Shown here: one piece after another, positions 1 through 52,835 of the stretch
Layout of the letters: every line of letters begins with the position of its first letter
How positions within the stretch are numbered: position 1 is the first letter of the stretch
Origin: a bacterium
GTDB taxonomy: Bacteria > Sysuimicrobiota > Sysuimicrobiia > Sysuimicrobiales > Segetimicrobiaceae
NCBI GenBank assembly: GCA_035308905.1
Contig: DATGFS010000030.1
Span: 139,966-203,965 of the forward strand
Length of the DNA stretch: 64,000 nt
Reading direction: 5' to 3'
Program-made: the position numbers and the translations under genes
The notes under the pieces: generated by a model
Seen by the model: the letters and a program-made list of their open reading frames with translations, nothing else
Database searches by the model: none
Told to the model about the DNA's origin: nothing

Positions 1-2828
1 TGCTCCAGAATCGGCCACAGCGCCCCGGGCCCCCCGTCTCCGCGACGGTCGACAATCGTCAGCGGCGCCCGGGGCGCCTGCTCGTGCACGATCGCCGTTG
101 CCGGGCACACGCGTGCGATGCCGCGGCAGAGCGTGCCGCTGCCCACGGCAAACACGGCCGCGCCGGCGAAGTCCGACACGGCCGCCCGCCAGTCCGGGGC
201 GGTGCCGCCGTCCACCACGACCGTCCCGACGCGAGGGGCAAACGCCGACACGCGGCCGGGTTCTCGCAGCACCTCCGTGGTGGCGACGAGCACGTCGACC
301 GCGCCGCGCCGCAGCATCTCGTCGAGCCGGTCCCGCGCCGTCAGCGGCAGAAGCCCGTGCGCGGTCTCGACGCAGACGCCGAGCGGCCGAAGGCGCGAGG
401 CCAGCTGCCCGGCCCGATGCACGGCGTGGCTCTTGGTGGGGACGACCACGAGCGCGCCGCGGCCGCCCGCGGCGGTCAGCGCGGCGGCCCCGGCGATCGC
501 GGTGGCCCGGCCGCGTCCCGGCGGCACCATGAGCGCCACCCGTCCTCCGCCGGCGAGCAGATCGAGCGCTTCGGCCAGCCCGGTCCGAAACGGCCGGCCG
601 CCGTTCAAGTAAATAGGAAGCCGCGCGAGTGCGTCCCGTACGCCTCCCGCCCGCCATCCGCGGACCGCCGCTCCCGGGCGCGAATCGGCCGCCCCGGCCG
701 GCGCCGGCGGGGCGAGCTCCTCCGGCGCGCGCTCGACGAACAGGTTGACGCCGGCCGCGCGCTCGCCGCCGCCGGTCACGCCGGCGACGGACGCGACGTA
801 GCGCACCCCGGCATCCATGAGCGGCGCGAGACGTCCGGCAAGCCGCGCGTTGAGGTATCCGACCGCGCCGCCGTCCTCGGTGCAGACCTGCACCGCGTGC
901 GGATCGTGGGGGTTCGCGGGTTCCCGGCGCAGCCGCACGCGGTCGCCCGCCCGCAGCGCCGCCACCACGGCCGGCCGGTCGCCGAACGTGACGCCGACGG
1001 CCTTGGTGTAGAACGCGGCCGCGTCTTCCACCGCCTCGTACCCGGCTTCACCGAGAAAGTCGTCCGCGCGCCGGAACAGGCGGTCCACGACGAGACCGGT
1101 ATCGCGCAGCACGGCGTCCAAGTCGATCCCGGGGACGTCGAGCGCGCGCAGGCGGAGACGCACGCGCTCGCCTGAGGGGGCCCCCCGGTCGATTTCCGGC
1201 GTGAACGCAAGGTCGACGGCCGCGCCGGTCAGGGTAAGCACGTCGATCCATCCCGCCATGGAGAACCCGATCGCATCGACAAACGTCGTCCCGTCCGTCA
1301 CGCCGATTCCGAGGTGCGCCCCGTCGCCGACGAGCCGGCGTGTGAGGGGGCGGACGTCACGCACACCGAGCACCGGGCTCGGATTGCCGAGACCAAACGG
1401 CGCCAGCCGGCCGAGCTCGGCGACGAGCGCCGGCGTCACGTCACCGAGCGTCACCTCCGCGTCGACCTGCACGCGCTCCGCGGGCCGGCCGGCCAGCGCC
1501 CCGGCGGCGCGCTCCGCGAAGCAGACGCGGAACGCGGGGATCGCGCCGGCCTCGATCGACAGCCCGGCGGCCATGGCGTGTCCGCCGAAGGCCACAAGGT
1601 GCTCGCCGCAGGCGGCCATGGCGCGCACGAGATCGAAGCCGGCCACGCTGCGCGCAGACCCGCGGCCGCCCGTTCCTGACAGGGCGATCGCCACCGCGGG
1701 GCGCCGGTACGCTTCGACGAGGCGTCCCGCGACCAATCCGACGACGCCGGGATGCCATCCCTCGCCCCCGACGACGATGCCCGCCGGCACACCCTCCGAC
1801 CGGGCCGCGCTCTCGACCTGGGCGACCGCGTCCGTCAGCACCTGGTCGAGGATCATCTGCCGCTCGCGATTCGCGTCGTCGAGCGCGTGTGCCAGCGCAC
1901 GCGCCTCCGCGGGATCGTCCGTCAGCAGAAGCTCGAGCGACGGGGTGGGGTCCCCGAGGCGGCCCGGCGCGTTGAGGCGCGGGGCGAGCTGCCATCCGAT
2001 GTGCCAGGCGTCCACCGGGCCCGCGATCGCCGCCTCCTCGAGCAGCGCCCGTACGCCGAGGGGAGGCTCCGTCCGCATCTGGTGAAGTCCCGCGGCGACG
2101 AGCCGGCGGTTGTCGCCGGTGAGCGGCACGACGTCGGCCACCGTTCCGAGCGCGGCGAGCGCCACAAGCCCGGCCGGCATCGCCGGCGCGCAGCCGAGCT
2201 CACGACGCAGTGCCCACGCGAAGAGAAACGCGAGGCCGGCCGCGCACGGCGCCGCGTCCTCGTCTCCGCGCACGCCCGGTTCGACAACGGCCGCGGCCGG
2301 CCGTTCCGGCGCCGGTTCGTGATGGTCGAGGACGACGACCTCGAGACCGAGCGCGCGCGCCCGGCCGACGGCGTCCACCGCGGTGATGCCGCAGTCGGCG
2401 GCGATCAGCAGTCCCGCGCCTTCGGCCGCGAGCGCTTCGACCGCCGGCACCCCGAGGCCGTAGCCGTCCCGGATCCGGTGCGGCAGGCGCGCACAAGGCG
2501 AAGCGCCGAGCGCCCGCAGGGTGCGCACGAGGATCGCCGTCGCGGTAATCCCGTCCACATCGTAGTCGCCGTGGATCGCGATCGGCCGGCCGGACCGGAC
2601 GGCGCCGGCCACCAACGCGACCGCCCCTTCCATCCCGGGGATTCGTGACGGATCGCCGAGATCGTCGAGGCACGGCGACAGAAACGCCCGCGCCGCCTCG
2701 AGCGTGGTCACGCCGCGGCGCCGCAGGAGCCCGGCGACCAGGGGAGACACCCCGAGGGCGCGTGCGAACTCCGCGGCACCCGCGTCCGCGGGCGCGACGT
2801 CCCACGCCGGCCGGTCGAGAACAGCCAT
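1..2828 (-). CDS. recJ: Single-stranded-DNA exonuclease RecJ (DHH/DHHA1/OB-fold core, start ATG 2828). It is fused in-frame to a C-terminal HIRAN domain and a further helicase-like region, and is 3'-partial because the frame stays open to position 1.
   Basis: Manual translation of the minus strand from 2828 gives MAVLDRPAWD...FARALGVSPLVAGLLRRRGVTTLEAARAFLSPCLDDLGDPSRIPGMEGAVALVAGAVRSGRPIAIHGDYDVDGITATAILVRT, the classic RecJ DHH motif. The OB-fold end (DAIGFSMAG...VRLRLRALDVPGID) falls near 1130. The frame then continues with no stop through VGVTFGDRPAVVAALRAGDRVRLRREPANPHDPHAVQVCTEDGGAVGYLNARLAGRLAPLMDAG (HIRAN consensus) and on to position 1. No ORF in this frame appears in the track, which fits an ORF running off the window edge. 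Confidence 0.8.
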   Translation of the reverse strand, partial: MAVLDRPAWDVAPADAGAAEFARALGVSPLVAGLLRRRGVTTLEAARAFLSPCLDDLGDPSRIPGMEGAVALVAGAVRSGRPIAIHGDYDVDGITATAILVRTLRALGASPCARLPHRIRDGYGLGVPAVEALAAEGAGLLIAADCGITAVDAVGRARALGLEVVVLDHHEPAPERPAAAVVEPGVRGDEDAAPCAAGLAFLFAWALRRELGCAPAMPAGLVALAALGTVADVVPLTGDNRRLVAAGLHQMRTEPPLGVRALLEEAAIAGPVDAWHIGWQLAPRLNAPGRLGDPTPSLELLLTDDPAEARALAHALDDANRERQMILDQVLTDAVAQVESAARSEGVPAGIVVGGEGWHPGVVGLVAGRLVEAYRRPAVAIALSGTGGRGSARSVAGFDLVRAMAACGEHLVAFGGHAMAAGLSIEAGAIPAFRVCFAERAAGALAGRPAERVQVDAEVTLGDVTPALVAELGRLAPFGLGNPSPVLGVRDVRPLTRRLVGDGAHLGIGVTDGTTFVDAIGFSMAGWIDVLTLTGAAVDLAFTPEIDRGAPSGERVRLRLRALDVPGIDLDAVLRDTGLVVDRLFRRADDFLGEAGYEAVEDAAAFYTKAVGVTFGDRPAVVAALRAGDRVRLRREPANPHDPHAVQVCTEDGGAVGYLNARLAGRLAPLMDAGVRYVASVAGVTGGGERAAGVNLFVERAPEELAPPAPAGAADSRPGAAVRGWRAGGVRDALARLPIYLNGGRPFRTGLAEALDLLAGGGRVALMVPPGRGRATAIAGAAALTAAGGRGALVVVPTKSHAVHRAGQLASRLRPLGVCVETAHGLLPLTARDRLDEMLRRGAVDVLVATTEVLREPGRVSAFAPRVGTVVVDGGTAPDWRAAVSDFAGAAVFAVGSGTLCRGIARVCPATAIVHEQAPRAPLTIVDRRGDGGPGALWPILE

Positions 2829-2888: not shown

Positions 2889-3230
2889 CTACCAGAGACG
2901 GCGCGTTTGACCGAGGTCGGACGATGTGTGCGAGGCGGGCGGAGCGGTCGCCGGCGGGACGTCGGGCGCGACGGGGGCCACGGCCGCTTGATGGGCCGCA
3001 AGCCGGCGCTCCAGATCGCGCAGGCGGCCGGCCAGATGGGCGTGCCGGGCCATCGACGGCAGGAACGTCAGCAGTGCCCCGAGGATGCCCGCGCCGACGA
3101 TCGCGAGCGCCAGCGACCCGGTGTAGATCGGCCACTGCCAGAACATCACGGTGACGGGGGTGGTGTTGCTGAGCGCGAACACCGTGGCCGCGAGGCAGAC
3201 GAGGATGAGCAGAACCGCGGCGCTCCGCAT
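2889..3230 (-). CDS. Small membrane protein, LapA-like (DUF1049: two TM helices plus a coiled-coil tail)
   Basis: The 113-aa ORF reads MRSAAVLLILVCLAATVFALS...WQWPIYTGSLALAIVGAGILGALLTFL followed by RLRDLERRLAAHQ, which matches the LapA/YciS domain architecture. It lies immediately downstream of secF in the same orientation. Confidence 0.55.
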   Translation of the reverse strand: MRSAAVLLILVCLAATVFALSNTTPVTVMFWQWPIYTGSLALAIVGAGILGALLTFLPSMARHAHLAGRLRDLERRLAAHQAAVAPVAPDVPPATAPPASHTSSDLGQTRRLW

Positions 3231-3240
3231 CCGGGGTCCT

Positions 3241-4287
3241 CTAGCGGCGGCGCCGGCGCCGCCGGCGCGACGTCACGGCGCGCGCGGCGCCGGGTACCAC
3301 CGCGGGCGCCTCGTCGGGCGTGCCCGCGCCGTCCGCGGCGGCCCGAACCTCGCGCGGCGTCTCGACCCGCTGCGGCCCGCGTCCGGGAGCCGCGGGAGCC
3401 CGCCGCTCGCCCCAGTTGTGCCAGTCGACCAGAATGCAGCTCGCGTTGAAGATCGAGGAGTAGCCGCCGGTGACGATGCTCACGACCAGGCCGAAGGCGA
3501 CGTCGCGGATCGTTTCCCCGCCGAAGACGTAGACCGCGCCGATCGCCAGCACGGCCGTCATCGCGGTGTTGATCGACCGCACCAGCGCCTCGAGAACGCT
3601 GCGGTTGACGAGGTGCTCGAACGGCTCGCGCGTCCGCATGCCGAGGTTCTCGCGAATCCGGTCGAAAATGACGATCGTGTCGTTGATCGAGTAGCCGGCC
3701 ACGGTCAGCAGCACGGCCAGGAACGACGAGTTGACCTCCCGCTGCGTCAGCGCGAACGCGCCGATGACGACCAGGAGGTCGTGGAGCAGCGCGATGTCCG
3801 CCGCGATCGCGAACCGCACCGAACGGAACCGGATCGAGATGAAGATGACCTGCAGCACGAGGCCGATCGCGACGCCGAGGATGGCGACGTTGCGCAGTTC
3901 GGCGCCGATCTCGGGGCCGACGGTATCCTCCCGCAGCATCGCCGTCGACGGCCACCGCGTCTTCGCCGCGTCGACGATGTCGTTCATCTGCGATTGCGAC
4001 AGCGGGCGGGTGCGGATGAACACCTCGGTGTCGCCGGACTTCTGGATGACCGCGTCGCCGAGCCCGAACCGGTCGAGCACCGATCGGACGTCCCCCACCG
4101 TGAACGGCTGGGTGATCCGCAGCTCGAGCGAGTTGCCGCCGGTGAAATCGACGCCCCAGTTGAGGGCGTGCCCGTCGTGCACGTGGTGGGCGTAGAGCGC
4201 GATCAGCCCGGGGAGGATGACGGCGAGCGACAGGGCGTACCACCAGCGCCGCCGGCCGATGATGTCGAAGGCGCGCACGTTACTCAC
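3241..4287 (-). CDS. secF: Protein translocase subunit SecF
   Basis: The 348-aa product has the SecF signature (FDIIGRRRWWYALSLAVIL...DFTGG...SIRFRSVRFAIAADIALLHD). It uses a GTG start overlapping the secD stop and carries a basic C-terminal tail. Confidence 0.93.
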   Translation of the reverse strand: MSNVRAFDIIGRRRWWYALSLAVILPGLIALYAHHVHDGHALNWGVDFTGGNSLELRITQPFTVGDVRSVLDRFGLGDAVIQKSGDTEVFIRTRPLSQSQMNDIVDAAKTRWPSTAMLREDTVGPEIGAELRNVAILGVAIGLVLQVIFISIRFRSVRFAIAADIALLHDLLVVIGAFALTQREVNSSFLAVLLTVAGYSINDTIVIFDRIRENLGMRTREPFEHLVNRSVLEALVRSINTAMTAVLAIGAVYVFGGETIRDVAFGLVVSIVTGGYSSIFNASCILVDWHNWGERRAPAAPGRGPQRVETPREVRAAADGAGTPDEAPAVVPGAARAVTSRRRRRRRR

Positions 4288-5710
4288 CGGCCCCGCCCCC
4301 GGATCCCCCGGCGGCCACGACCGACGGCTCCCGCGACCGGCCGGTCCATGCCAGCGACTGAATGTAGCGCGCCAGGCTCGTCTCCAGGATGAGATCGACG
4401 AAGACGCGCGTCACGACGATCGCGGTGAAGATGCTGGTGAGAATGCCGAGGATCAGCGTCACGGCGAAGCCGCGCACCGGGCCGGTGCCCAGCCACAAGA
4501 GGACCGCCGCGCCGATCAGCGTCGTCGTGTTCGAGTCGAAAATCGTGACCACCGCGCGGTTCCATCCCGTCGACACGGAGGCGCGGAGCGTCTTGTGGCC
4601 GCGCAGCTCTTCCTTGACCTTTTCGAAGATGATGACGTTCGCGTCGACCGCGACGCCGAGCGACAGGATGAACCCCGCGATGCCCGGCAGCGTGAGCGTG
4701 GCGCCGAGTGCCGTCAGCAGCGCGAACAGGATCAGCGTGTAGACGACGAGGGCCAGGTCGGCGAGGATGCCGGCGAGCCGGTAGTACAGCAGCATGAAGA
4801 GCCCGACCATGACGATCGCGACGTAGCCGGCGTGCACGCTGCGGTCGATCGAGTCGCGCCCGAGCAGCGGGCCGACGGTCCGGTTCTCCACCACGTGCAC
4901 GGGCAGCGGCAGCGCGCCGCCGCGCAGCAGCACGGCGAGTTCGCGCGCGGACTCGAGCGTAAACCCGCCTTCGATCACGCCCTTTCCGCCGGGGATCGGG
5001 GACTGAATCACCGGCGAGCTGATGACGACGTTGTCGAGCACGATCGTGAGGTACTTGCCGACGTTCTTCGTCGTGTAGTCTTCGAACGTTTTGGCGGCGG
5101 AGCTCTTGAACGTAAATCCGACCTGGGGGCGCCCGAACTGGTCGAACTGGACCTGCGCGTCGCTGAGGTCGGCGCCGGTGAGGATCACCTTCTTCGGGAC
5201 GTGCTGGGTCGTCTTATCCGGGAGCACCGAGGTGTCGACGCCCTGCCACGTGGTCCCCGCCGGCAGCGAGACCGGACCGGTGTCGACGAACTCCAGCAGC
5301 GCGGTCTTGCCGATGAGGTCGATGGCGCGCTGCGGATTTTGAATGCCGGGCAGCTCGACGAGGATGCGGTTCGGGCCCTGGCGGGTGATCGCGGGCTCGG
5401 CGAGGCCGAGCTGGTCGACGCGGTTGCGAATGATGCGCAGCACGCCGTCCATCGCATCGTTCGTGACCTGCGTCTGCGCGGTCGGCTCGGCCTGCAGCAC
5501 GATGTGGCTCCCGCCCTGCAGGTCGAGCCCGAGGTTCAGGTGCGGCCGCGGCGTCTGCAGCATCGGTGTCGCGCCGACGAGGCGAACCGGTTGAAACGCG
5601 ACGAAGAACGCAGCCAGCGCGATCAGCACGACGCCCAAGAGCCTGACCGGATTGCCGAGCTTCACCCTGTGAGACCCCTCGAGAGCGTGATCGAAGCCGT
5701 CCGCAAACAA
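4280..5710 (-). CDS. secD: Protein translocase subunit SecD
   Basis: The 476-aa product has a SecD periplasmic domain and the C-terminal 6-TM SecDF module (LDLQGGSHIVLQ...ILSLGVAVDANVIIFEKVKEE). It is translationally coupled to secF. Confidence 0.93.
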   Translation of the reverse strand: MFADGFDHALEGSHRVKLGNPVRLLGVVLIALAAFFVAFQPVRLVGATPMLQTPRPHLNLGLDLQGGSHIVLQAEPTAQTQVTNDAMDGVLRIIRNRVDQLGLAEPAITRQGPNRILVELPGIQNPQRAIDLIGKTALLEFVDTGPVSLPAGTTWQGVDTSVLPDKTTQHVPKKVILTGADLSDAQVQFDQFGRPQVGFTFKSSAAKTFEDYTTKNVGKYLTIVLDNVVISSPVIQSPIPGGKGVIEGGFTLESARELAVLLRGGALPLPVHVVENRTVGPLLGRDSIDRSVHAGYVAIVMVGLFMLLYYRLAGILADLALVVYTLILFALLTALGATLTLPGIAGFILSLGVAVDANVIIFEKVKEELRGHKTLRASVSTGWNRAVVTIFDSNTTTLIGAAVLLWLGTGPVRGFAVTLILGILTSIFTAIVVTRVFVDLILETSLARYIQSLAWTGRSREPSVVAAGGSGGGAGE

Positions 5711-5821
5711 AAAAAGCCTTGCGAACGCGTTTCATTATATCGGCGGCGCACGGCGAGTGTCAAACCTGCGCCCCGCGCCGGGCGCGACGGCGGGCCGGCG
5801 GCTGAGTCCGCGGCCGCCGCG

Positions 5822-6799
5822 TCAACGCAGGTCGCCCGGCTCGACGGCCGCGGGGCGAAACGGATCGCGCCGCGCGTTACGCCGGCCCTCGAGGACGTCG
5901 GCTTCGCGCCCCGGCGCCGGACGGTAGTGGGTCTCGAAGAACCCGAGCGCCGACTCCGCGAGGAGATGGTACGCGGCGGAGAAGATGCCGCGCGCCTCGA
6001 CGCCGTTCCAGCGCTCCGGCAGCACGTCCGCCGGCAGCCCCGGATCGACGAACAAAAATTTCCGGAACTCGTGCACGAGCCGCGTCTTCTCGCGGAACGC
6101 CTCCCCGCCCGGGAGGTCGAGGCCGCTGCCCGTCCGGGCCGCCGCCGCCCGCCAGGCGGCCAGGCGGGGCCGCCACGCATCTGCGAACGCGCCGTAGGCC
6201 GCGTCGATCGCCGGCAGGTCCCAATGCCGCGCGGCGAATGCCGCCGCGCCGCCGCCGGCGAGCCCGGCCGCAAACATCTCCGCGGGCCCGGCCCCGAACG
6301 CGTAGCGCTCCGCGAGCGCGGGCATCCGATTGAGGAGATCGTTGGGCGTCACGTGCACGCCGCGGGCAAGCGGCGCGAACCCCATCCACTCCAATTCACG
6401 CCGCAGCGCGGCGCGGCGCTCCCGGTCCGAGGCGGCCGGCAGGATGACGATCCGCCACAACCCGTCCCACCGCTCCGGACGCAGCTTGAAGATGCGGCCC
6501 GCCGCCTCTTCGATGCGGGCCTCGCCGCGGGGCGTGAGCGCGTAGTAGCCGGCGCGCCCGGCACGGATCGCGGCCAGCCAGCCCTGCCGCGTCGTTCGCG
6601 ACACCGCGGCGCGCACCGCCGACCCCGTAAAGCCGAGTTCGCCCATCAACGTGATCAGGCTGCCGATCCAGATGGTGCCGCCGTAATGGCGGACGTAGTC
6701 GCCAAACAGCGTGAAGAGCATCGACCGGGCGTGCATCCCGGTCGCGGCCGCGGGCGCCTCGCCAAGACCGGGGGGCGGCGTCGCGGGCATCTGCGCCAC
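5822..6799 (-). CDS. paaX: PaaX-family transcriptional regulator (phenylacetate catabolism repressor-like)
   Basis: The 325-aa product begins SMLFTLFGDYVRHYGGTIWIGSLITLMGELGF...VSRTTRQGWL, the PaaX N-terminal wHTH, and continues with the PaaX C-terminal domain. Confidence 0.75.
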   Translation of the reverse strand: MAQMPATPPPGLGEAPAAATGMHARSMLFTLFGDYVRHYGGTIWIGSLITLMGELGFTGSAVRAAVSRTTRQGWLAAIRAGRAGYYALTPRGEARIEEAAGRIFKLRPERWDGLWRIVILPAASDRERRAALRRELEWMGFAPLARGVHVTPNDLLNRMPALAERYAFGAGPAEMFAAGLAGGGAAAFAARHWDLPAIDAAYGAFADAWRPRLAAWRAAAARTGSGLDLPGGEAFREKTRLVHEFRKFLFVDPGLPADVLPERWNGVEARGIFSAAYHLLAESALGFFETHYRPAPGREADVLEGRRNARRDPFRPAAVEPGDLR

Positions 6800-6805
6800 C
6801 CGCCG

Positions 6806-8008
6806 CTAGGCGAGCCCTTCGACGATCGTCGCGATCCCCTGGCCGACGCCGATGCACATCGTCGCGAGCCCCCACCGCGCGCGCCGCCGGTCCATCTCGC
6901 GGACCAGCGTGAGGAGCAGGCGGGCGCCGCTCGCGCCGATCGGATGGCCGAGGGCGATCGCTCCGCCGTTCACGTTGAGCCGGGACCGGTCGATGCCAAG
7001 ATCGCGGACGCAGGCCAGCACCTGCGACGCGAACGCCTCGTTGAGCTCGATCAGATCGATCTCGTCGAGCGTGCGCCCGGCGCGGATCAGCGCCTTCTGC
7101 GTCGCGGGCACCGGGCCGATGCCCATATACGATGGATCGACGCCCGCGGCGGCCATCGCGGCGATCCGCGCGAGCGGCCGGCGGCCGTGCCGCTCCGCCC
7201 ATTCCGCGGAGGTCACGAGCAGGCACGCGGCGCCGTCGTTGATGCCCGAGGAGTTGCCCGCCGTGACGGTGCCGGCCGGCCGAAACGCCGGGCGCAGCGT
7301 CGCAAGGGTCTCGAAGGTCGTGTCCGGCCGCGGATGTTCATCGGTGTCGACGACGGTGGCGTCGCCGCGGGCCCGCGCGACGGTGACCGGGACGATCTCT
7401 TCCGCGAGGCGGCCCTCCCGCTGCGCGGCGGCGGCGCGCCGCTGGCTCTCCACGGCAAACTCGTCCTGCTCCTCGCGCGAGATGCCGTACCGCTCCGCCA
7501 CGTTTTCCGCGGTCTCGCCCATGCTGTAGAGCGGGAAGCGCTCCTCGAGCCGCGGGTTCGGAAAGCGCCAGCCGATCGTCGTATCTTGCAGGACCTGCGT
7601 GCCGCGGGGAAACGCGTGCGCCGGCTTGCCCATCACGAACGGCGCGCGGGTCATGCTCTCCACGCCGCCCGCGAGATACACGTCGCCGTCGCCGCCGGCG
7701 ATCGCACGCGCCGCGGCGTGGACGGCCTGCATCCCCGATCCGCAGAGCCGGTTGACGGTCTGTCCGGGGACGCCGTCCGGCAGGCCGGCCAGCAGCACCG
7801 CCATGCGCGCGACGTTGCGGTTGTCCTCGCCCGCCTGATTGGTGCAGCCCATCACGACGTCCTCGATCTCGGCCGGGTCGAGCGTGTTGCGCTGGACGAT
7901 CGATTCGATCATCCTGGCCGCGAGGTCGTCCGCCCTGACGTCGCGCAGCGCGCCGCCGTAGCGGCCGATCGCACTCCGCACGCCGTCGACAATCACCACG
8001 TCCCGCAT
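6806..8008 (-). CDS. Acetyl-CoA C-acyltransferase / 3-oxoadipyl-CoA thiolase (thiolase II family)
   Basis: The 400-aa product has the thiolase motifs ([11 protein letters not shown]...GVESMTRAP...[20 protein letters not shown]...CIGVGQGIA). Its position next to paaX suggests a PaaJ/PcaF-like role. Confidence 0.9.
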
Positions 8009-8059
8009 GTGTCGCGTCCCTCCACGATTCTCCGGCCGTCCACGCGCGCCCGGCGCGCC

Positions 8060-8854
8060 TTAGCGTCCCACGTACGCCGGCGCCCGTTTGGCGAGGAACG
8101 CCGCCACGCCCTCGCGGTGATCCTCGGACCGGCCGGCGATCTCCTGAAGGTAGGCCTCGTATTCGAGCGCCCCGCGCAGGTCGAGAGCGAGGGCGCGGTC
8201 CACGCCCCGCTTGATCAGCCCGTAGGCCCGCGTCGGTCCCTGGGCGAGCCGCGCGGCCCACTCCAGCGCGCGCGGCATCAGGTCGTCCGCCGGCACCACC
8301 CGGTTCACGAGCCCCAGCCGCTCGGAGGCGGCCGCGTCCACCGGCTCTGCAAAGAACATCATCTCGAGCGCGCGTCCGACGCCTACGAACCGCGGCAGCA
8401 GCCACGTGCCGCCCGAGTCCGGAATCAGGCCGACCCGCGTGAACACCTCGATGAAGCTGGCCCGGTCCGACGCCACGCGCAGGTCGGCGGCCAGCGCGAG
8501 GTTGCAGCCTGCGCCGGCGGCGACGCCGTTGACCGCGGCGACGACGGGCTTCTCCGTCGTCCGCAGACGGAGGATGATCCGGTTATACCGCGCGCGCAGC
8601 AGCGCGCCGAGCGAGGTTTCCCCCGGCGTGTGTCCGCGCAGGTCGGCGCCGGAGCAAAAGGCGCGGCCCGCGCCCGTCAGCACGACGCAGCGCACCTGCG
8701 CGTCGCCGTCGGCCTTGGCGAGCGCGTCCAACAGCTCCTCGCCCAGCTTGGCGTCGAAGGCGTTGAGCACGTCGGGCCGGTTGAGCGTGATCACCCGCAC
8801 GCCCTCGCGATCCTCGGTCAGCACCGTTTCGTACATCGCCGGGTTCCCTCCCAT
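8060..8854 (-). CDS. Enoyl-CoA hydratase/isomerase (crotonase family)
   Basis: The 264-aa product carries the crotonase fold motifs (VLTGAGRAFCSGADL...AAVNGVAAGAGCNLALAADLRVAS). Confidence 0.85.
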   Translation of the reverse strand: MGGNPAMYETVLTEDREGVRVITLNRPDVLNAFDAKLGEELLDALAKADGDAQVRCVVLTGAGRAFCSGADLRGHTPGETSLGALLRARYNRIILRLRTTEKPVVAAVNGVAAGAGCNLALAADLRVASDRASFIEVFTRVGLIPDSGGTWLLPRFVGVGRALEMMFFAEPVDAAASERLGLVNRVVPADDLMPRALEWAARLAQGPTRAYGLIKRGVDRALALDLRGALEYEAYLQEIAGRSEDHREGVAAFLAKRAPAYVGR

Positions 8855-8864
8855 CGGCTGCTCG

Positions 8865-9635
8865 TTACGCCCCCGCTTCGAGGACCGCGCGGGCCCGCTC
8901 GAAGACCGCGTCGAGCATCGGTTCGGTCAGCCTGCCGGTGTTGGTGTTCTGCCGGCTCGGATGATACGAGGCGATGAGCACCGGCCCGTGCGGCCCGAGG
9001 TTGTAGGCGGCTCCGTGCCCGAAGCGCAACGACCGCGTCGGCACCCCGCGCGAGGCGAACACGCGCCGGCAGACGTCGAACCCGATGCGGCCCAGGGCGA
9101 CGACCACCCGAACCCGCCGCAGCAGCGCGAGCTCTCGTTCGAGGAAGGGAAGGCAGCGGGCGATCTCCGCGGGCGCCGGCTTGTTCAACGGCGGCGCGCA
9201 GCGTACCGGCGCGGTCAGGTATGCATCGATCAGGCGCAGTCCGTCTCCTCGCCGCACCGACGTCGGCTGGCTGGCGAACCCCGCGCGATGCATCGCCCGG
9301 AACAGCCAGTCGCCGGAGCGGTCGCCGGTGAACATCCGGCCCGTGCGATTCGCCCCGTGCGCCGCGGGCGCCAGCCCCACGATCAGCAGGCGCGAGGCGG
9401 GATCGCCGAAGCCGGGGACCGGACGCCCCCAGTAGGTGCACGCCGAGAACTCACGTTTGCGGACCGCCGCCACCGCCTCACAGTGGCGGCGCAGACGCGG
9501 GCAGCGCGCGCACGCCACCACCTCGCGCGCCACCGCGCGCAGCGAGTCGCCCCGCGCGGGGAGCGGGCGTGCCGGCCGGCTCGCCGCCGGCAGCCGTGAA
9601 ATCGAAGCCGTCGGCGTGGTGGACGCGGCGGTCAC
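8865..9635 (-). CDS. Uracil-DNA glycosylase, family 4 (UdgA-like)
   Basis: The C-terminal ~210 aa of ORF 8865..10148 carry the family-4 UDG motifs (CARCPRL...[32 protein letters not shown]...HPS). The upstream ~170 aa are Arg-rich antisense junk and overlap a crotonase gene. The proposed start is the GTG at 9635, which forms a GTGA overlap with the stop of the upstream crotonase. Confidence 0.7.
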
Positions 9636-10405
9636 CGGCCCTGGAACTCCGGCCGGCGCTTCTCGAGAAACGCGCGGACGCCCTCGCGCTTGTCGTCTGT
9701 GCTGAAGAGCGCCTGGAAGCACCGGCGCTCGAACACGAGGCCGGCTTCGAGCGAGGATTCGTAGGCCTGCAGCACCGCCTCTTTCGCGAGCCGGACCGCG
9801 ATCGGGGCCTGCCGCGCGATCTCCGCGGCGAGGCGCTTCGCTTCGTCCAGACACAGCTCCGGCGGCACCACCCGTGAAACGAGCCCGGCCGCGAGGGCTT
9901 CCGGCGCCGTCAGGGCACGTCCCGTCAGCACCATCTCCATGGCGCGCGACTTGCCGACCGCGCGGGTGAGCCGCTGCGTTCCTCCGGCGCCGGGCATCAG
10001 GCCGAGCCGGATCTCCGGCTGCCCAAACTGGGCGCTCTCCGAGGCGACGATGATGTCGCACAGCATCGCCAGCTCGCAGCCGCCGCCGAGCGCGTAGCCC
10101 GATACCGCGGCGATGACGGGCTTGGCGATCCGCCGGATGCGCATCCACTGCTCGAACCGGTACGCTTTGATGACGTCGGCGGTCGTCGCCTCCGCCATTT
10201 CCCGCACGTCGGCGCCGGCCGCAAACACCCGGGGACCGCCCCAGAGCACGATGCAGCGCACCGCCGCGTCGCGGTCGCAGCCTTCCAGCGTCGCGGCGAG
10301 CTCTTCCATCAATGCCTGGCTCAACGCGTTGAGCACTTCCGGCCGGTTGAGCGTGACGAGGGCGACGCCGCCGTCGAGGGTCAGCAGAACTTGGTCGCCG
10401 GCCAT
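9632..10405 (-). CDS. Enoyl-CoA hydratase (crotonase family)
   Basis: The 257-aa product reads [13 protein letters not shown]...[17 protein letters not shown]...[33 protein letters not shown]. Confidence 0.85.
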
Positions 10406-14933: not shown

Positions 14934-15250
14934 CCAGCCCGCCCCCTGCCCGTCTCGCGCCCTGGCTCACGCCGTAGGCCCAGGGCCTTCCGGCCGCCAT
15001 CCGGCGGCCTCCTGTAACATCAACGCCGCCTCACCCCAAAGGGCGAAGCGGCGCTTCGCGGTACCACCTTCATCCCACGGCCCGAAGGGGCCGCGGCTCG
15101 ACGCGCTGTCTCGGGCGCACCCGGCGAATCCGCGGCGTCAGGACGCCCCGTCTGGCGCGGGGCGAACGGCCGACGATCCGCTGCTCAGGGGCGACGTTCG
15201 GTTCGTGCGGCCCGGGGAGCTCTCACCAACCCTCCCCTCGCTTCGGACGC
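14934..15250 (-). promoter_or_regulatory. Putative T-box riboswitch leader of valS
   Basis: The minus strand reads GGTGGTACCGCG (plus-strand coordinates 15057-15068), the conserved core of the T-box motif (AGGGUGGNACCGCG). It is followed by an imperfect GC-rich hairpin (15025-15052) and a U-rich stretch about 80 nt upstream of the valS ORF. T-box control of aminoacyl-tRNA synthetase genes is established in Firmicutes, Actinobacteria and Chloroflexi. Confidence 0.45.
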
Positions 15251-15318
15251 CGCTCGGACCTACTCCTCCCCGTCCTCGCGTTTGCGTTGCGCGTATTATA
15301 ACATATCAGGAGATTCCC

Positions 15319-18300
15319 ATGGCTCTCCACCGCTTCCATCCACTCGTCGCGGAGTGGTTCGCCGAACGGTTCGGCGCGCCGACACCGGCGCAGGCCGGCG
15401 GCTGGCCGGCGATCGCGTCCGGCCGCGACACGCTCATCGCCGCGCCCACCGGATCGGGCAAGACGCTCGCCGGCTTTTTGTGGGCCGTCAACGCCCTGCT
15501 GCTCGAAGGGATGCGGGGCGCCGGCGGTCATCTGCCCGACGAGACGGCGGTTGTGTATGTCTCGCCCCTCAAGGCGCTCGGCAACGACGTCCACGCCAAC
15601 CTCGTCGGTCCTCTCGCCGAGATTCGCGAGCGGGCCGCCGCCGCGGGTGCGGTCCTGCCCGAAATCCGCGTCGCGGTTCGCTCCGGCGACACGCCGGCCG
15701 CCGACCGCGCGCGGATGCGCCGCCGGCCGCCGCACATCCTGATCACAACGCCGGAGTCGCTCTACATCCTGCTGACCGCGGACGGCAGCCGGACGTTTCT
15801 CAAGCATGCCCGCACGGTCATCGTGGACGAGATTCACGCGGTTGCGCAGGACAAGCGCGGGGCGCACCTCACGCTTTCGCTCGAGCGGCTCGACCGCCTG
15901 GCGGGACGGCGCCTCCAGCGCATCGGGTTGAGCGCGACGCAGAAACCCGTCGAGGAGATCGGCCGGCTGCTCACCGGCACCGCCGGCGACTGCGCGATCG
16001 TCGACGCCGGCCACCGCCGCCCGTGGGACCTGTCCATCGAGGTGCCCGGCCCGCCGCGGGGACCGATCGTCGCGAACGACGTGCGGGACGCCGTCTACGA
16101 CCGGCTCGCCGCGCTCGCGCAGAGCCACCGGACCACGCTGGTGTTCGTGAACACCCGGCGGCTGGCGGAGCGGGTCGCCCATCAGCTCGGCCAGCGCCTC
16201 GGCGAGTCGCAGGTGGCCGCGCACCACGGCAGCCTCTCGCGGCGCCTCCGGCTCGACGCGGAGCGCCGGCTCAAGAGCGGGGAGCTGCGCGTCGTCGTGG
16301 CGACCGCCTCGCTCGAGCTTGGCATCGACATCGGCCACGTCGATCTCGTCTGCCATCTCGGCACGCCATCGTCGATCGCCGTCCTCCTCCAGCGCGTCGG
16401 CCGGGCCGGGCACACGGTGGGCGGCGTCTCCCGCGGCATCCTCTTCCCGTTCACGCGAGACGAGATGCTGCAGTGCGCCGCGGCGGTGCGCGCCGCCCGG
16501 GCGGGGGAGCTCGACACGGTCGTGCTGCCCGAGAAACCGCTCGACGTCCTCGCGCAGCAGATGGTGGCGGTGGCCGCCGCCGAGGAGATTGCCGAGGACG
16601 AGTTGTACGCGCTCGTCCGGCGCGCGCACGCCTATCGCGATCTCGGCCGGCCGGAGTTCGACCAGCTCGTCGACATGCTGGCCGAAGGCGTCGCGCGGCG
16701 GTGGGGCCGCGGGGCCGCGTATCTTCACCGCGACCGCACCCGCGGGACGGTGCGGGGCCGCCGGGGCGCGCGCCTCGCCGCGATCACCTCGGGCGGCGCC
16801 ATTCCGGACACGGCCGATTACGACGTGATCCACGATCCCGAAGGCGTGCTCGTCGGCCGGGTCAACGAAGACTTCGCGGTCGAGAGCATGGCGGGCGACG
16901 TCTTCCTGCTCGGCAACACGTCGTGGCGCATCCGCCGCGTGGAGGCCGGGCGCGTCCGGGTGGAAGACGCCCACGGCGCGCCCCCGTCGGTGCCGTTCTG
17001 GCTCGGCGAATCGCCCGGCCGCAGCCGCGAGTTGTCGGCCGCGGTGTCGGCGCTGCGCGCGGCGATCGAGGCGCGGCTCGGCGATCCGGCCGCGGCGCAG
17101 GAGTGGCTCAGCCGCGAGACCGCCCTCGACGCCGACGGCGCGGCCCAGGCCGTCCAGTACCTCACCGAGACGCGCGCCGCCCTCGGCGGCGTGCCGGCGC
17201 AGGACTGGATCGTCGCCGAACGCTTCTTTGACGAAGCCGGCGGCATGCAGCTCGTTCTGCACACGCCGTTCGGCGCGCGGATCAACCGCGCGTGGGGCTT
17301 CGCATTGCGCAAGCGCTTCTGCCTGACGTTCGATTTCGAATTGCAGGCGGCGGCCACGGACGACGGCATCGTGCTGTCGCTCGGCCCGCAACACAGTTTT
17401 CCGCTGGAGACGGTGTTTCATTTCGTCCGGCCGGCGATGCTGCGCGACGACATCATTCAGGCGGTGCTCCCCTCGCCGCTGTTCACCACCCGGTGGCGGT
17501 GGAACGCGGCCCGCTCACTCGCCGTCCCGCGGTACCAGGGCGGCCGGCGCGTGCCGATGCCGATCCAGCGCATGCGCGCCGAGGATCTGCTCGCCGCGGT
17601 CTTTCCCGATCAGGTCGCGTGTCAGGACAACCATGCCGGGCCGATCACCCCGCCCGACCACCCGCTCGTCAACGAGACGATCGGCAACTGCCTCAACGAG
17701 GCCATGGACATGGCCGGGCTCGCGGCGGTGCTCGGGGAGATGGAGCGCGGCGCGATCCGTACCGCCGCCGTGGAGACCCCGGCGCCTTCACCGATCTCGC
17801 ACGAGATCCTGAACGCCAACCCGTACGCCTTTCTCGACGACGCGCCGCTCGAGGAGCGCCGCGCCCGCGCGGTCGCGCTGCGGCACGTCGGCCCCGGCGC
17901 CTCGGACGGACCGGGCGTACTTGACGCGGCCGCGATCGCCGACGTTGCCGCTCAGGCCTGGCCCGACATCCGCGGCGCCGACGATCTGCACGACCACCTG
18001 CTCACCGTGCGCCTCCTGCCGCTCGAGGATGCGGCGCCGTGGGACGCGCAGGCGCGCACGCTCGCGGCGGATCGGCGCGCCACCGTGGCCGTATGGCACG
18101 ACGCTTTCGGGCGCGAGCGCCGGGCCTATGTCGCGGCCGATCGGGCGCCCGACGTGGCTCGGGCCCTCGGCGAGGTGCGCTTCGAGCCCGAGCCGCCGCC
18201 GCTCGGCGTGACGCCGGACGATCTCGAACCGTCCGAAGCCGCGCGGCTGATCGTTCACGGCTGGGTGCAGTGCGTCGGACCGTTCACGTCCGCGGCGCTC

Positions 18301-19626
18301 GCCGCGCGCCTCGGCCTCTCGCACGGATCCGTGGAGACCGCGCTGGCCGCGCTCGAGGGGAGCGGCGTAATCTTGCGTGGGCGGTTCACCCCCGGGACGG
18401 CGGACGAGGAGTGGTGCGACCGGCGCCTCCTCGCGCGGATTCACCGGCTCACCCTCGGGCGGCTCCGGCGTGAGATCGACGCGGTCTCCCCGGCGACGTT
18501 CATGCGCTTCCTCCTGCGCTGGCAGCATCTTCAGCCCGGGACCCAACTGCACGGACGGGACGGTGTCGCGGAGGTCGTGGGAATTCTCCAGGGCCTCGAA
18601 GTGCCGGCCCCGGCCTGGGACGAGCACGTCCTCCCCGGCCGGGTGCGCCTGTACGATCCGGAGGATCTCAACGCGCTCTGCCTCAACGGTCTCGTCACCT
18701 GGGGACGTCTGAGCGCCGGCCCGACCGCGGGCCCGAGCGGCGAGGGCGCGCCGAACGGGACCCCGGCCAAGCGCGGGACGTCGCTGTCGCGGTCGGCGCC
18801 GATCGCGCTTCTGCTGCGCGAAGACCTCGGCGCGTTCGTCGAGCCGGACGGAGGCGGGCACGGCGATGCGGCCCTGCGCGGCGCGGCGGCCGACGTGTTC
18901 CGATATCTCGCGGAGCGGGGCGCTTCGTTTTTGACCGACGTCGCGCGCGGGATCGGCCGCATGCCCGCCGACACCGAGACGGCGCTCTGGGAGTTGGTCG
19001 CGAAGGGCCTCGTCAGCGGCGACGGGTTCGCGGGATTGCGCCGGCTCATCGACCGGAGCGATCCGAATCGCCGCCGCCGGTACCTTCAAATCAACATCGG
19101 GCACGTGGGGCGTCCTGCGCGGCGCGCGCTGCCGGCCGGCCGGTGGGCCGTCTGGCGGCCGGGCGACATCGCGCTGAAGCCGGACGAGCGCGACGCGGTC
19201 GTGGCCCGTCAGCTCCTCCGCCGGTACGGCGTCGTGTTCAGAGATCTCCTCGCCCGCGAGCGGGCGCTGCCGCCGTGGCGGCGGCTGCTTGACGTCTACC
19301 GGCGCTGGGAAGCGCAGGGCCAGGTGCGCGGGGGGCGCTTTGTCGCCGGCGTCGCGGGAGAGCAATACGCGCTGCCGGGCGCGGTCGAGACGCTGCGGGC
19401 CGTGCGTCGCGAGCCCGACGAGACGGCCGACGTGGTGATCTCGGCGGCGGATCCGCTCAACTTGGCCGGCATCCTCCTGCCGGGCGAGCGCATCTCTCCC
19501 CTGTCCGGCCTCGCGATTGTCCTTCGCAACGGCGTGATCGCGGACACCGGGCCGTACGGCGCGCTCCTGGCGAGCCGGCGGGCCGCAGCGGAGATGGCGG
19601 CCCGGACCGCGGCGCCCGCGTCGTGA
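15319..19626 (+). CDS. lhr: ATP-dependent helicase Lhr (large helicase-related protein, DEAD/DEAH SF2 core plus C-terminal domains)
   Basis: The product is about 1435 aa and begins HPLVAEWFAERFGAPTPAQAGGWPAIASGRDTLIAAPTGSGKTLAGFL, followed by DEIH and SATQ motifs and a long C-terminal region. The start is the ATG at 15319, preceded by GGAG. Confidence 0.9.
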   Translation: MALHRFHPLVAEWFAERFGAPTPAQAGGWPAIASGRDTLIAAPTGSGKTLAGFLWAVNALLLEGMRGAGGHLPDETAVVYVSPLKALGNDVHANLVGPLAEIRERAAAAGAVLPEIRVAVRSGDTPAADRARMRRRPPHILITTPESLYILLTADGSRTFLKHARTVIVDEIHAVAQDKRGAHLTLSLERLDRLAGRRLQRIGLSATQKPVEEIGRLLTGTAGDCAIVDAGHRRPWDLSIEVPGPPRGPIVANDVRDAVYDRLAALAQSHRTTLVFVNTRRLAERVAHQLGQRLGESQVAAHHGSLSRRLRLDAERRLKSGELRVVVATASLELGIDIGHVDLVCHLGTPSSIAVLLQRVGRAGHTVGGVSRGILFPFTRDEMLQCAAAVRAARAGELDTVVLPEKPLDVLAQQMVAVAAAEEIAEDELYALVRRAHAYRDLGRPEFDQLVDMLAEGVARRWGRGAAYLHRDRTRGTVRGRRGARLAAITSGGAIPDTADYDVIHDPEGVLVGRVNEDFAVESMAGDVFLLGNTSWRIRRVEAGRVRVEDAHGAPPSVPFWLGESPGRSRELSAAVSALRAAIEARLGDPAAAQEWLSRETALDADGAAQAVQYLTETRAALGGVPAQDWIVAERFFDEAGGMQLVLHTPFGARINRAWGFALRKRFCLTFDFELQAAATDDGIVLSLGPQHSFPLETVFHFVRPAMLRDDIIQAVLPSPLFTTRWRWNAARSLAVPRYQGGRRVPMPIQRMRAEDLLAAVFPDQVACQDNHAGPITPPDHPLVNETIGNCLNEAMDMAGLAAVLGEMERGAIRTAAVETPAPSPISHEILNANPYAFLDDAPLEERRARAVALRHVGPGASDGPGVLDAAAIADVAAQAWPDIRGADDLHDHLLTVRLLPLEDAAPWDAQARTLAADRRATVAVWHDAFGRERRAYVAADRAPDVARALGEVRFEPEPPPLGVTPDDLEPSEAARLIVHGWVQCVGPFTSAALAARLGLSHGSVETALAALEGSGVILRGRFTPGTADEEWCDRRLLARIHRLTLGRLRREIDAVSPATFMRFLLRWQHLQPGTQLHGRDGVAEVVGILQGLEVPAPAWDEHVLPGRVRLYDPEDLNALCLNGLVTWGRLSAGPTAGPSGEGAPNGTPAKRGTSLSRSAPIALLLREDLGAFVEPDGGGHGDAALRGAAADVFRYLAERGASFLTDVARGIGRMPADTETALWELVAKGLVSGDGFAGLRRLIDRSDPNRRRRYLQINIGHVGRPARRALPAGRWAVWRPGDIALKPDERDAVVARQLLRRYGVVFRDLLARERALPPWRRLLDVYRRWEAQGQVRGGRFVAGVAGEQYALPGAVETLRAVRREPDETADVVISAADPLNLAGILLPGERISPLSGLAIVLRNGVIADTGPYGALLASRRAAAEMAARTAAPAS

Positions 19627-32642: not shown

Positions 32643-32719
32643 TGGTGCGCCCGGAGGGACTCGAACCCCCGGCCCGCTGCTTCGAAGGCAGCCGCTCTCT
32701 CCGACTGAGCTACGGGCGC
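32643..32719 (-). tRNA. tRNA-Arg (anticodon TCG)
   Basis: Manual fold: acceptor stem GCGCCCG/CGGGCGC, D-arm GCTC-AGTCGGAGA-GAGC, anticodon loop CTTCGAA, T-arm GGGGG-TTCGAGT-CCCTC, with an encoded CCA. Confidence 0.85.
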
Positions 32720-32775: not shown

Positions 32776-32865
32776 TGGTGCGGGCGGAGGGATTTGAACC
32801 CCCACGAGCCTCGCGGCCCACCAGGTCCTAAGCCTGGTGCGTCTGCCAGGTTCCGCCACGCCCGC
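32776..32865 (-). tRNA. tRNA-Leu (anticodon TAG), long variable arm
   Basis: The gene is 90 nt: acceptor GCGGGCG/CGCCCGC, anticodon stem-loop CCAGG-CTTAGGA-CCTGG, a long variable arm and T-loop TTCAAAT, with an encoded CCA. Confidence 0.85.
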
Positions 32866-32930: not shown

Positions 32931-33006
32931 GGGCCGTTAGCACAACTGGCAGTGCAGGGGACTCTTAATCCCAAGGTTGTAGGTTCGAGTCCTACACGGC
33001 CCACCA
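32931..33006 (+). tRNA. tRNA-Lys (anticodon CTT)
   Basis: The gene is 76 nt: acceptor GGGCCGT/ACGGCCC, U8, A14, G18G19, anticodon loop CTCTTAA, T-arm GTAGG-TTCGAGT-CCTAC, discriminator A and CCA. Confidence 0.8.
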
Positions 33007-52759: not shown

Positions 52760-52835
52760 TGGGGTGGCTGACGGGAATCGAACCCGCAACCCCCAGAGCC
52801 ACAGTCTGGTGCTCTGCCTTTGAGCTACAGCCACC
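52760..52835 (-). tRNA. tRNA-His (anticodon GTG) with encoded G-1 and CCA
   Basis: Manual fold: G-1 followed by acceptor GTGGCTG/CAGCCAC, anticodon stem-loop CCAGA-CTGTGGC-TCTGG, T-arm GCGGG-TTCGATT-CCCGT and discriminator C. Confidence 0.88.

Follow-up and report, generated by a model that had tools for sequence, protein, structure and literature searches.

A long recJ gene occupies one end of the window, by which we mean the whole 64,000-nucleotide stretch of bacterial DNA analysed here (contig DATGFS010000030.1). The gene lies on the minus strand at 1..2828, as do all of its parts described below. It starts with an ATG at 2828 (MAVLDRPAW...) and reads through 942 codons without a stop, the last of them ending at window base 3; a further two bases remain, and the open reading frame (ORF) runs off the window at base 1. 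What the window holds is the 5' part of the gene, 942 of approximately 1190 codons, encoding a RecJ core, a HIRAN domain and the N-lobe of a putative RecQ-like pseudo-helicase, with 89% identity to an orthologue from an unclassified soil metagenome-assembled genome, or MAG (L001:6303-9887). The ORF is missing from the program-made ORF list because the lister skips ORFs that run off an end. A first-pass annotation, made from the sequence alone, had noted that the frame is still open at position 1 and had quoted a number of motifs; the frame is indeed open, and its translation places HGDYDVDG at 2550-2573, LRAGDRVRL at 930-956, PPGRGRAT at 501-524, PTKSHAVHRAGQL at 402-440 and VVVDGGTAPDW at 189-221. 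The GC content is 0.80-0.96 at third codon positions (GC3) and 0.44-0.72 at second positions (GC2) in every 150-nucleotide block of the frame, from start to end. Nothing in this unbroken codon-position pattern, with its constant GC3 periodicity, points to a change of frame where RecJ passes into HIRAN.

The first 550 amino acids of the window protein are predicted to be a complete bacterial RecJ, a 5'-to-3' single-strand DNA exonuclease. Residues 28-547 match the equivalog-level NCBIfam model TIGR00644 (recJ) with 430.7 bits against a cut-off of 396.9. Pfam resolves three domains in this region: the DHH catalytic domain (2145..2582, residues 83-228; PF01368, E 2.1e-17), which carries the HGDYDVDG, ADCG and DHH motifs; the DHHA1 domain (1527..1775, residues 352-434; PF02272, E 2.1e-11) with its GGH motif; and the RecJ oligonucleotide/oligosaccharide-binding (OB) fold, RecJ_OB (1188..1466, residues 455-547). 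The OB-fold had been thought to end near 1130; its actual end is at approximately nucleotide 1188 (residue 547). In an alignment of 60 family members, Asp88, Asp90, Asp92, Asp145, Asp168, His169 and His170 are nearly invariant, as are Gly415, Gly416 and His417 of the GGH motif.

The RecJ core is followed by a family-specific helical linker (1014..1187, residues 548-605) with the consensus PGxDxxxVLxDTGxxxxRLFxRAxDxLG, which is conserved in all orthologues. We modelled the 942-residue window protein with AlphaFold2 (AF2) on the 60-sequence alignment, obtaining a mean predicted local distance difference test score (pLDDT) of 89.3 and a predicted template modelling score (pTM) of 0.83; in this model the linker has helices at residues 570-591. 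The HIRAN domain comes next (729..1013, residues 606-700), delimited by Pfam PF08797 and the AF2 model, with an NPHD motif at 903-914. The HIRAN match put forward in the first-pass annotation is significant: residues 606-683 score 56.8 bits against a gathering score of 24.7 (E 2.1e-15), and the orthologues score 52-59 bits. Solved HLTF HIRAN chains match the segment at E 2e-7, with NPYD of HLTF aligned to NPHD and Asp642 aligned to HLTF Asp94. In HLTF, Asp94 reads the 3'-OH of the primer strand (PMC5773155), and Tyr72 and Tyr93 pinch the last two bases (PMC5773155, PMC4666394). Among the 51 family members with a strong HIRAN match, Asp642 is invariant, together with Gly612, Ala645, Gly657 and Gly693; Thr608, Lys609, Phe615, Arg618, Asn639, Thr685, Gly686 and Asn695 are near-invariant, Asn639 being present in 49 of the 51 and the Phe615 position being Phe or Tyr in the same number. 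The HLTF HIRAN fold has been described as six strands and two helices (PMC5773155). The topology of the AF2 model agrees with this description, with strands at 605-611, 630-635, 646-650, 655-659, 677-685 and 693-700 (pLDDT ~90) and helices at 618-623 and 661-672. A low-complexity linker follows (594..728, residues 701-745), which is probably disordered (AF2 pLDDT <50 for residues 704-721) and is the least conserved stretch of the protein, with 80% identity to L001 and a ratio of non-synonymous to synonymous substitution rates (dN/dS) of 0.41.

The remainder of the window protein (3..593, residues 746-942) is the RecA-like N-lobe of a RecQ-type superfamily 2 (SF2) helicase, with ATPase motifs that appear dead: a motif I remnant at 501-524, motif Ia at 402-440 and motif II (VVVDGG) at 189-221. 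The Pfam DEAD model matches residues 753-873 with 18.1 bits (E 0.0024), under its cut-off of 26. In the alignment, PPGRGRAT, PTKSHAVHRAGQL and VVVDGG occupy the same columns as GTGRGKS, YPLRALVNDQ and VVDEAHH in active relatives. Over the whole module, active relatives read RPYRPRQQE at motif 0, MGTGRGKS at motif I, YPLRALVNDQ at Ia, VVDESHH at II, TATA at III, STSAFGEGIDI at V and QQSGRAGRDG at VI. The window clade reads RPFRTGLAE, VPPGRGRA, VPTKSHAVHRAGQ, VVDGGTA and AVGSG at motifs 0 to III, and TTVALDEEALP and LAACGAALAGRRP at motifs V and VI, the last two taken from L001, where motif VI lies beyond the part of the gene covered by the window. The window protein has neither the Walker A signature GxGK[ST] nor DExH, and motif III TAT and the arginine finger of motif VI (QxxGRAGR) are likewise replaced. 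The position of the Walker A lysine is occupied by Arg, Trp, Val, Gly, Ser or Glu in different members of the window clade. We infer that the window protein lacks ATPase activity.

In the AF2 model, residues 746-915 form a parallel alpha/beta RecA-like lobe with a pLDDT of ~90. A Foldseek search with the C-terminal module ranked RecQ structures first, with WRN structures among the fold matches; the query was an AF2 model from a 10-sequence alignment (pLDDT 60, pTM 0.39) and was used for ranking only. The RecQ model TIGR00614 (recQ_fam) has a cut-off of 219.8 bits; the best active relative reaches 189 bits and the orthologue L002 ~26 bits. Pfam finds none of the accessory domains RQC, RecQ_Zn_bind and HRDC in either the orthologues or the active relatives. 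By fold, the helicase-like region belongs to the SF2 RecA type and is nearest to RecQ, with degenerate catalytic motifs.

Scanning one genome per species revealed three loci encoding the same protein. L001 contains an ORF of 1194 amino acids (6303-9887), identical to the window protein at 89% of positions; L002, from 'Armatimonadetes bacterium CSP1-3', has an ORF of 1170 amino acids (46% identity); and L003, from an unclassified MAG, has at least 953 amino acids before it is cut by the contig end (44% identity). All three align with the window protein end to end, and the identities are for its whole length. Metagenome fragments from other projects span the same RecJ/HIRAN junctions. The in-frame fusion of RecJ to HIRAN, proposed in the first-pass annotation, is thus kept at every orthologous locus, in independent assemblies and down to 44-46% identity. 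Beyond the window edge, the orthologues go on into a further helicase lobe, which scores above the Pfam Helicase_C cut-off in L001 and L002, and then into a conserved tail of ~150 amino acids. A lower-confidence model suggests a helix-helix-helix-hairpin arrangement for this tail, resembling a winged helix, and the tail keeps the family-wide motifs YRxLR, F.E.G and RRDL..S.R..EG. The earlier description of a RecQ-type N-lobe with non-canonical motifs therefore stands as regards fold and degeneracy, but the module is not an N-lobe alone.

The protein belongs to a large family. A word-indexed protein search returned three matches with the C-terminal 377 amino acids of the window protein and 15 with a six-sequence profile, undercounting the family badly, probably because of low-complexity, GC-rich sequence. 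At a threshold of E<=1e-30, an exhaustive HMMER search of 1.84 billion representatives yielded 186 cluster representatives. Of the best 150 of these, 82 have a length of at least 1000 amino acids. We aligned and classified these 82 together with the window protein, L001 and L002 (85 proteins). HIRAN is present and the Walker A and DExH motifs are intact in 41 of the 85; 20 have intact motifs and no HIRAN; 15 combine HIRAN with degenerate motifs, among them the window protein, L001 and L002; eight have degenerate motifs and no HIRAN; and one is mixed in both respects. The consensus of the active members is of RecQ type (MGTGRGKS, YPLRALVxDQ, TTPEF, VVDExHH, TATA, QxxGRAGRDG), and the best-scoring models for their helicase part are those of RecQ (TIGR01389, 199 bits, E 1e-58), with coverage limited to the motor core.

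Named members come from Bacillota, Actinomycetota and MAGs labelled Armatimonadetes or Armatimonadota. Active proteins with HIRAN are found in Peptococcus simiae (WP_408977392.1), a Peptococcaceae MAG, Bacillota MAGs and Actinomycetota MAGs; an active protein without HIRAN, from a Coriobacteriales MAG, is named 'DEAD/DEAH box helicase'; degenerate proteins occur in Fuchsiella alkaliacetigena (WP_248663770.1) and Natroniella sp. (WP_408954824.1); and the window clade consists of MAGs labelled Armatimonadetes or Armatimonadota. Every named member except the Coriobacteriales protein is annotated as RecJ alone. The architecture had been flagged as an unfamiliar one. This is correct in so far as literature searches aimed at a RecJ-HIRAN or RecJ-helicase fusion, made across 8 million papers and preprints with incomplete coverage, found no paper describing one; the sequences themselves are already public, nearly all under the name RecJ, and the window protein is one of a multi-phylum family in which most members have an intact helicase.

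Some members of the family deserve separate mention. P0090, P0126, P0132 and P0135 (Fuchsiella alkaliacetigena and Natroniella sp., cultured Halanaerobiales) form a separate clade of long RecJs with degenerate motifs and a weaker HIRAN match. RecJ is joined directly to an active RecQ-like helicase, without HIRAN, in proteins of ~1020-1140 amino acids such as P0085, P0093, P0097, P0109, P0112 and P0146; a Coriobacteriales MAG contributes P0203 (MDR1016528.1), which falls in the P0146 cluster. HIRAN-less active proteins are interleaved in the tree described below with HIRAN-bearing ones, which suggests repeated loss of HIRAN. P0150, with 1848 amino acids, has four separate stretches matching the profile, and its helicase motifs are degenerate. 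The Pfam model PF10141 (ssDNA-exonuc_C) finds no match in the tails of L001, L002 and the family member P0017. It matches the tail of P0059 with 30.6 bits against a cut-off of 26.4, and more weakly those of P0085 and P0035; the P0059 match hints at common descent with Firmicute RecJs that have a C-terminal add-on.

A neighbour-joining tree built on 517 columns of the RecJ core places the window protein together with L001, P0017, P0018, L002, P0020-22, P0024 and P0104. This clade is monophyletic, each of its members is degenerate, and its sisters are active proteins from Bacillota MAGs. Judged from this topology, the predicted pseudo-helicase state is a derived feature of the window clade. Other degenerate groups, such as the Halanaerobiales proteins, lie elsewhere in the tree, showing that motif loss happened more than once. 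Mean pairwise identity within the dead clade is 0.50 for RecJ, 0.61 for HIRAN and 0.28-0.34 for the helicase lobes; the corresponding values for the active neighbours are 0.42, 0.48 and 0.45-0.51. Between the window protein and L001, dN/dS is 0.125 for RecJ, 0.20 for HIRAN and 0.415 for the N-lobe, and it is below 1 in every segment; these ratios come from a single pair and are indicative only. Constraint on the lobes of the dead clade is relaxed, but the lobes are retained, and the rates agree with a loss of catalysis and preservation of the fold. Within this clade no other part of the protein is as well conserved as HIRAN, which argues for a HIRAN function that survived the loss of the motor, or gained weight after it.

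The gene next to recJ encodes a small membrane protein with a LapA domain (2889..3230, minus strand; PF06305, E 4.9e-9), followed further upstream by secF (3241-4287) and secD (4280-5710), both on the minus strand (3241..5710; Pfam SecD_SecF_C, SecDF_P1_head and SecD_1st). The lapA gene is the same neighbour in L001 and L002, secF and secD are syntenic there, and the order secD-secF-lapA-recJ is common to all three; in L002 and L003 a RelA/SpoT gene lies directly downstream of recJ. Gene order around recJ in Firmicutes such as Bacillus is of the same kind. The locus is a housekeeping recJ neighbourhood, not a mobile or defence island. L001 differs from the window by an insertion of ~670 bp (5692-6251) between lapA (5294-5635) and the recJ fusion at 6303, encoding an RHH/CopG antitoxin of 82 amino acids and a PemK/MazF toxin of 99 amino acids. 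The gap at this position in the window is only 60 bp (2829-2888), and the toxin-antitoxin pair is absent.

Upstream of secD, also on the minus strand, are genes for a PaaX-family regulator (5822-6799; syntenic in L001 as well), a thiolase (6806-8008) and an enoyl-CoA hydratase (8060-8854). A plus-strand ORF of 1586 amino acids at 4217-8977 was rejected as spurious antisense: it has no Pfam hit and overlaps the minus-strand secD, PaaX, thiolase and enoyl-CoA hydratase genes. Such an ORF is typical of very GC-rich DNA. A minus-strand gene at 8865-10148 encodes a protein of 426 amino acids with a family-4 uracil-DNA-glycosylase domain only at residues ~240-417; the N-terminal 240 amino acids gave no match in Pfam or NCBIfam. 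Scanning the six-frame translation of the 64-kb window with family hidden Markov models (HMMs) found no second RecJ, HIRAN or RecQ-like gene. The sole other helicase matched in this way is a large SF2 helicase of Lhr type, with 1473 amino acids (15205-19626, plus strand; NCBIfam PRK13767, 670 bits, and PRK09751, 664 bits, both under their cut-offs). Four tRNA genes lie at 32646-32719 (minus), 32779-32865 (minus), 32931-33003 (plus) and 52763-52834 (minus), the first three forming a cluster.

We consider it probable that the window gene is the cell's own RecJ, derived from a resection enzyme that combined RecJ, HIRAN and a RecQ-like helicase in one chain, and that the motor now serves as an ATP-independent DNA-binding scaffold. 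The presumed ancestral form, with an intact helicase, is still present in many Bacillota and Actinomycetota, where it amounts, as far as sequence can tell, to a single-chain RecQ plus RecJ for RecFOR/RecA resection of ends and gaps. Several points weigh against this interpretation. The tree carries no support values. The window is without the last ~250 codons of the gene, and the C-lobe and tail are inferred from orthologues. The position of HLTF Tyr93 is His641 in the window protein, and in the family it is His in 17 members, Phe in 11, Tyr in 8 and Val in 6. That Phe615 corresponds to HLTF Tyr72 is our assumption. Lastly, the helicase lobes are fast-evolving in the window clade (28-34% identity, dN/dS ~0.4) and could be drifting towards loss.

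The last point leads to a reading in which the C-terminal helicase-like part is a functionless relic nearing deletion, and only RecJ, perhaps with HIRAN, matters. The rates are as such a relic would predict (N-lobe dN/dS of 0.415 against 0.125 for RecJ, and within-clade identity of 0.28-0.34 for the lobes against 0.50 for RecJ), and shorter architectures exist in related lineages, several clades being without HIRAN and the Bacillus/Staphylococcus-type RecJ having a short C-terminal domain only. However, all of the roughly ten members of the clade, with RecJ identities down to 43%, retain two lobes and a tail of full length, none of them truncated or frameshifted; the N-lobe is predicted to be well packed (AF2 pLDDT ~90); the winged-helix-like region keeps its family-wide motifs; and dN/dS is still clearly below 1. 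We therefore regard a relic as unlikely. The opposite reading, that the module is still an active motor using non-canonical nucleotide-binding residues such as Arg in place of the Walker A Lys, could appeal to the preserved full-length fold, to the Asp at the motif II position in most clade members and to the conservation of PPGRG in part of the clade. It is difficult to reconcile with a Walker A Lys position that is not conserved (R, W, V, G, S, E), with the replacement of Glu and His in motif II, of TAT in motif III and of the arginine finger in motif VI, with a Pfam DEAD score under the cut-off and with lobes that evolve much faster than those of active relatives, and we think it quite improbable.

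Two further explanations concern the gene as a whole. An ORF artefact, in which a stop or frameshift near 1100-1200 was lost and the HIRAN/helicase part is a separate gene, had been raised in the first-pass annotation, and in very GC-rich DNA stops are indeed rare and long spurious ORFs occur, the one at 4217-8977 (plus strand) being an example. Yet the junction from RecJ_OB through the linker to HIRAN is uninterrupted in L001, L002, L003, P0002, P0005-P0008, P0010, P0011 and P0013, and in dozens of representatives from independent projects, down to ~30% identity; the codon-position GC pattern is unbroken; and dN/dS is below 1 in every segment. The conservation of the junction across independent assemblies excludes a missed stop or frameshift for all practical purposes. 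That the protein belongs to a mobile or anti-phage defence system, and not to chromosomal repair, might be suspected because HIRAN and SF2 helicases both occur in conflict systems, because standalone HIRAN proteins are known from phages and toxin-antitoxin settings (e.g. the HipA-family study PMC8262856), and because a MazEF-like toxin-antitoxin pair lies directly upstream in L001. Given that secD-secF-lapA-recJ-relA synteny is kept across orthologues of 44-89% identity, that the RecJ part is an equivalog-level match and that the toxin-antitoxin insertion is absent from the window, a defence role is very hard to credit.

If the window gene is a RecJ with a scaffold in place of a motor, a mechanism can be proposed, including the DNA-end specificity and the division of labour between domains. 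For the long RecJs with an active helicase, we envisage that the RecQ-like motor tracks 3'-5' on the 3'-ended strand and that RecJ degrades the displaced 5' strand, both heading the same way into the duplex. From its position between motor and nuclease, HIRAN would recognise the 3'-OH end, fray it and keep hold of it. In the window clade, HIRAN would capture the 3'-OH at a break, gap or stalled fork, fray the terminal base pairs and hold or protect the 3' strand. The dead lobes and the winged helix could form a passive clamp or wedge on the DNA where it passes from single- to double-stranded, separating the strands by binding, independently of ATP. RecJ would then thread and degrade the complementary 5' strand, with movement powered either by RecJ's processive hydrolysis or by another helicase. 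A stalled fork may be an equally plausible substrate, with nascent 3' and 5' ends close together. More tentatively, and with considerable doubt, we propose that long RecJs are natural single-chain RecQ-RecJ enzymes with a built-in 3'-end sensor, that the motor turned into an ATP-independent clamp in the window lineage and independently in Halanaerobiales, and that capture and fraying by HIRAN replaces the helicase in giving RecJ access to blunt, 3'-tailed and fork substrates. If true, this would be the first HIRAN-type 3'-end recognition in bacterial recombinational repair, and an ATP-free start of resection.

The widespread natural fusion of RecJ to a RecQ-like helicase is strong "Rosetta-stone" evidence for both acting as one unit on one DNA end. 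The placement of HIRAN suggests that 3'-OH reading, so far studied in eukaryotic fork remodellers (HLTF/Rad5), also serves bacterial resection. The family contains naturally matched variants, differing in whether they carry HIRAN and whether the motor is live or dead, which makes the role of each module directly testable, and cultured hosts are available in Peptococcus simiae, Fuchsiella alkaliacetigena and Natroniella sp. Annotating these proteins of ~1200 amino acids as RecJ only hides a helicase and a HIRAN domain from genome-based inventories of repair functions.

In the RecF pathway, RecJ and RecQ form the textbook pairing of nuclease and helicase, and AddAB and RecBCD are other known combinations of the two activities. 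The long RecJs of the Bacillus/Staphylococcus type (~750-790 amino acids), Firmicute proteins with PF10141 as a C-terminal add-on (S. aureus structure 8y30), differ from the present family in having neither HIRAN nor helicase lobes, and PF10141 in turn is not matched in the tails of the window-clade orthologues. On its own, RecJ requires a single-stranded 5' tail, and blunt or 3'-tailed ends require a 3'-5' helicase such as RecQ; in D. radiodurans, no direct contact between RecJ and RecQ was found (PMC4846377). The E. coli and D. radiodurans systems share the RecJ core (TIGR00644) with the family described here, and the helicase of its active members is closest to RecQ, but theirs are separate proteins, whereas a long RecJ is one chain with HIRAN in between. 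Compared with RecQ itself, the window clade is without the ATPase motifs, and even active relatives fall below the recQ_fam cut-off. HLTF/Rad5 resembles the long RecJs in having HIRAN N-terminal to an SF2 motor and in sharing the Asp of N-P-x-D and the predicted HIRAN fold. It differs in that long RecJs have a RecQ-like motor in place of SNF2, lack a RING domain and carry a 5'-3' exonuclease as the partner activity; the Tyr93 equivalent in the window protein is His, and the hosts of long RecJs are bacterial.

Single-chain combinations of a nuclease and an SF2 helicase in DNA repair are also known from WRN, which joins a 3'-5' exonuclease to a RecQ helicase, and from bacterial exonuclease-DinG proteins (SaDinG, PMC12345164). 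In both, the nuclease is of the DnaQ/DEDD type and works 3'-5', unlike the 5'-3' DHH nuclease of long RecJs; both are without HIRAN, and their helicases are active. A parallel for the dead motor is offered by Cdc45, a nuclease-inactive protein of RecJ fold that is bound to MCM, in that a catalytic fold is kept as a DNA-binding or scaffold part (PMC4846377). The roles are reversed in the window clade, where the nuclease is predicted to be alive and the helicase dead.

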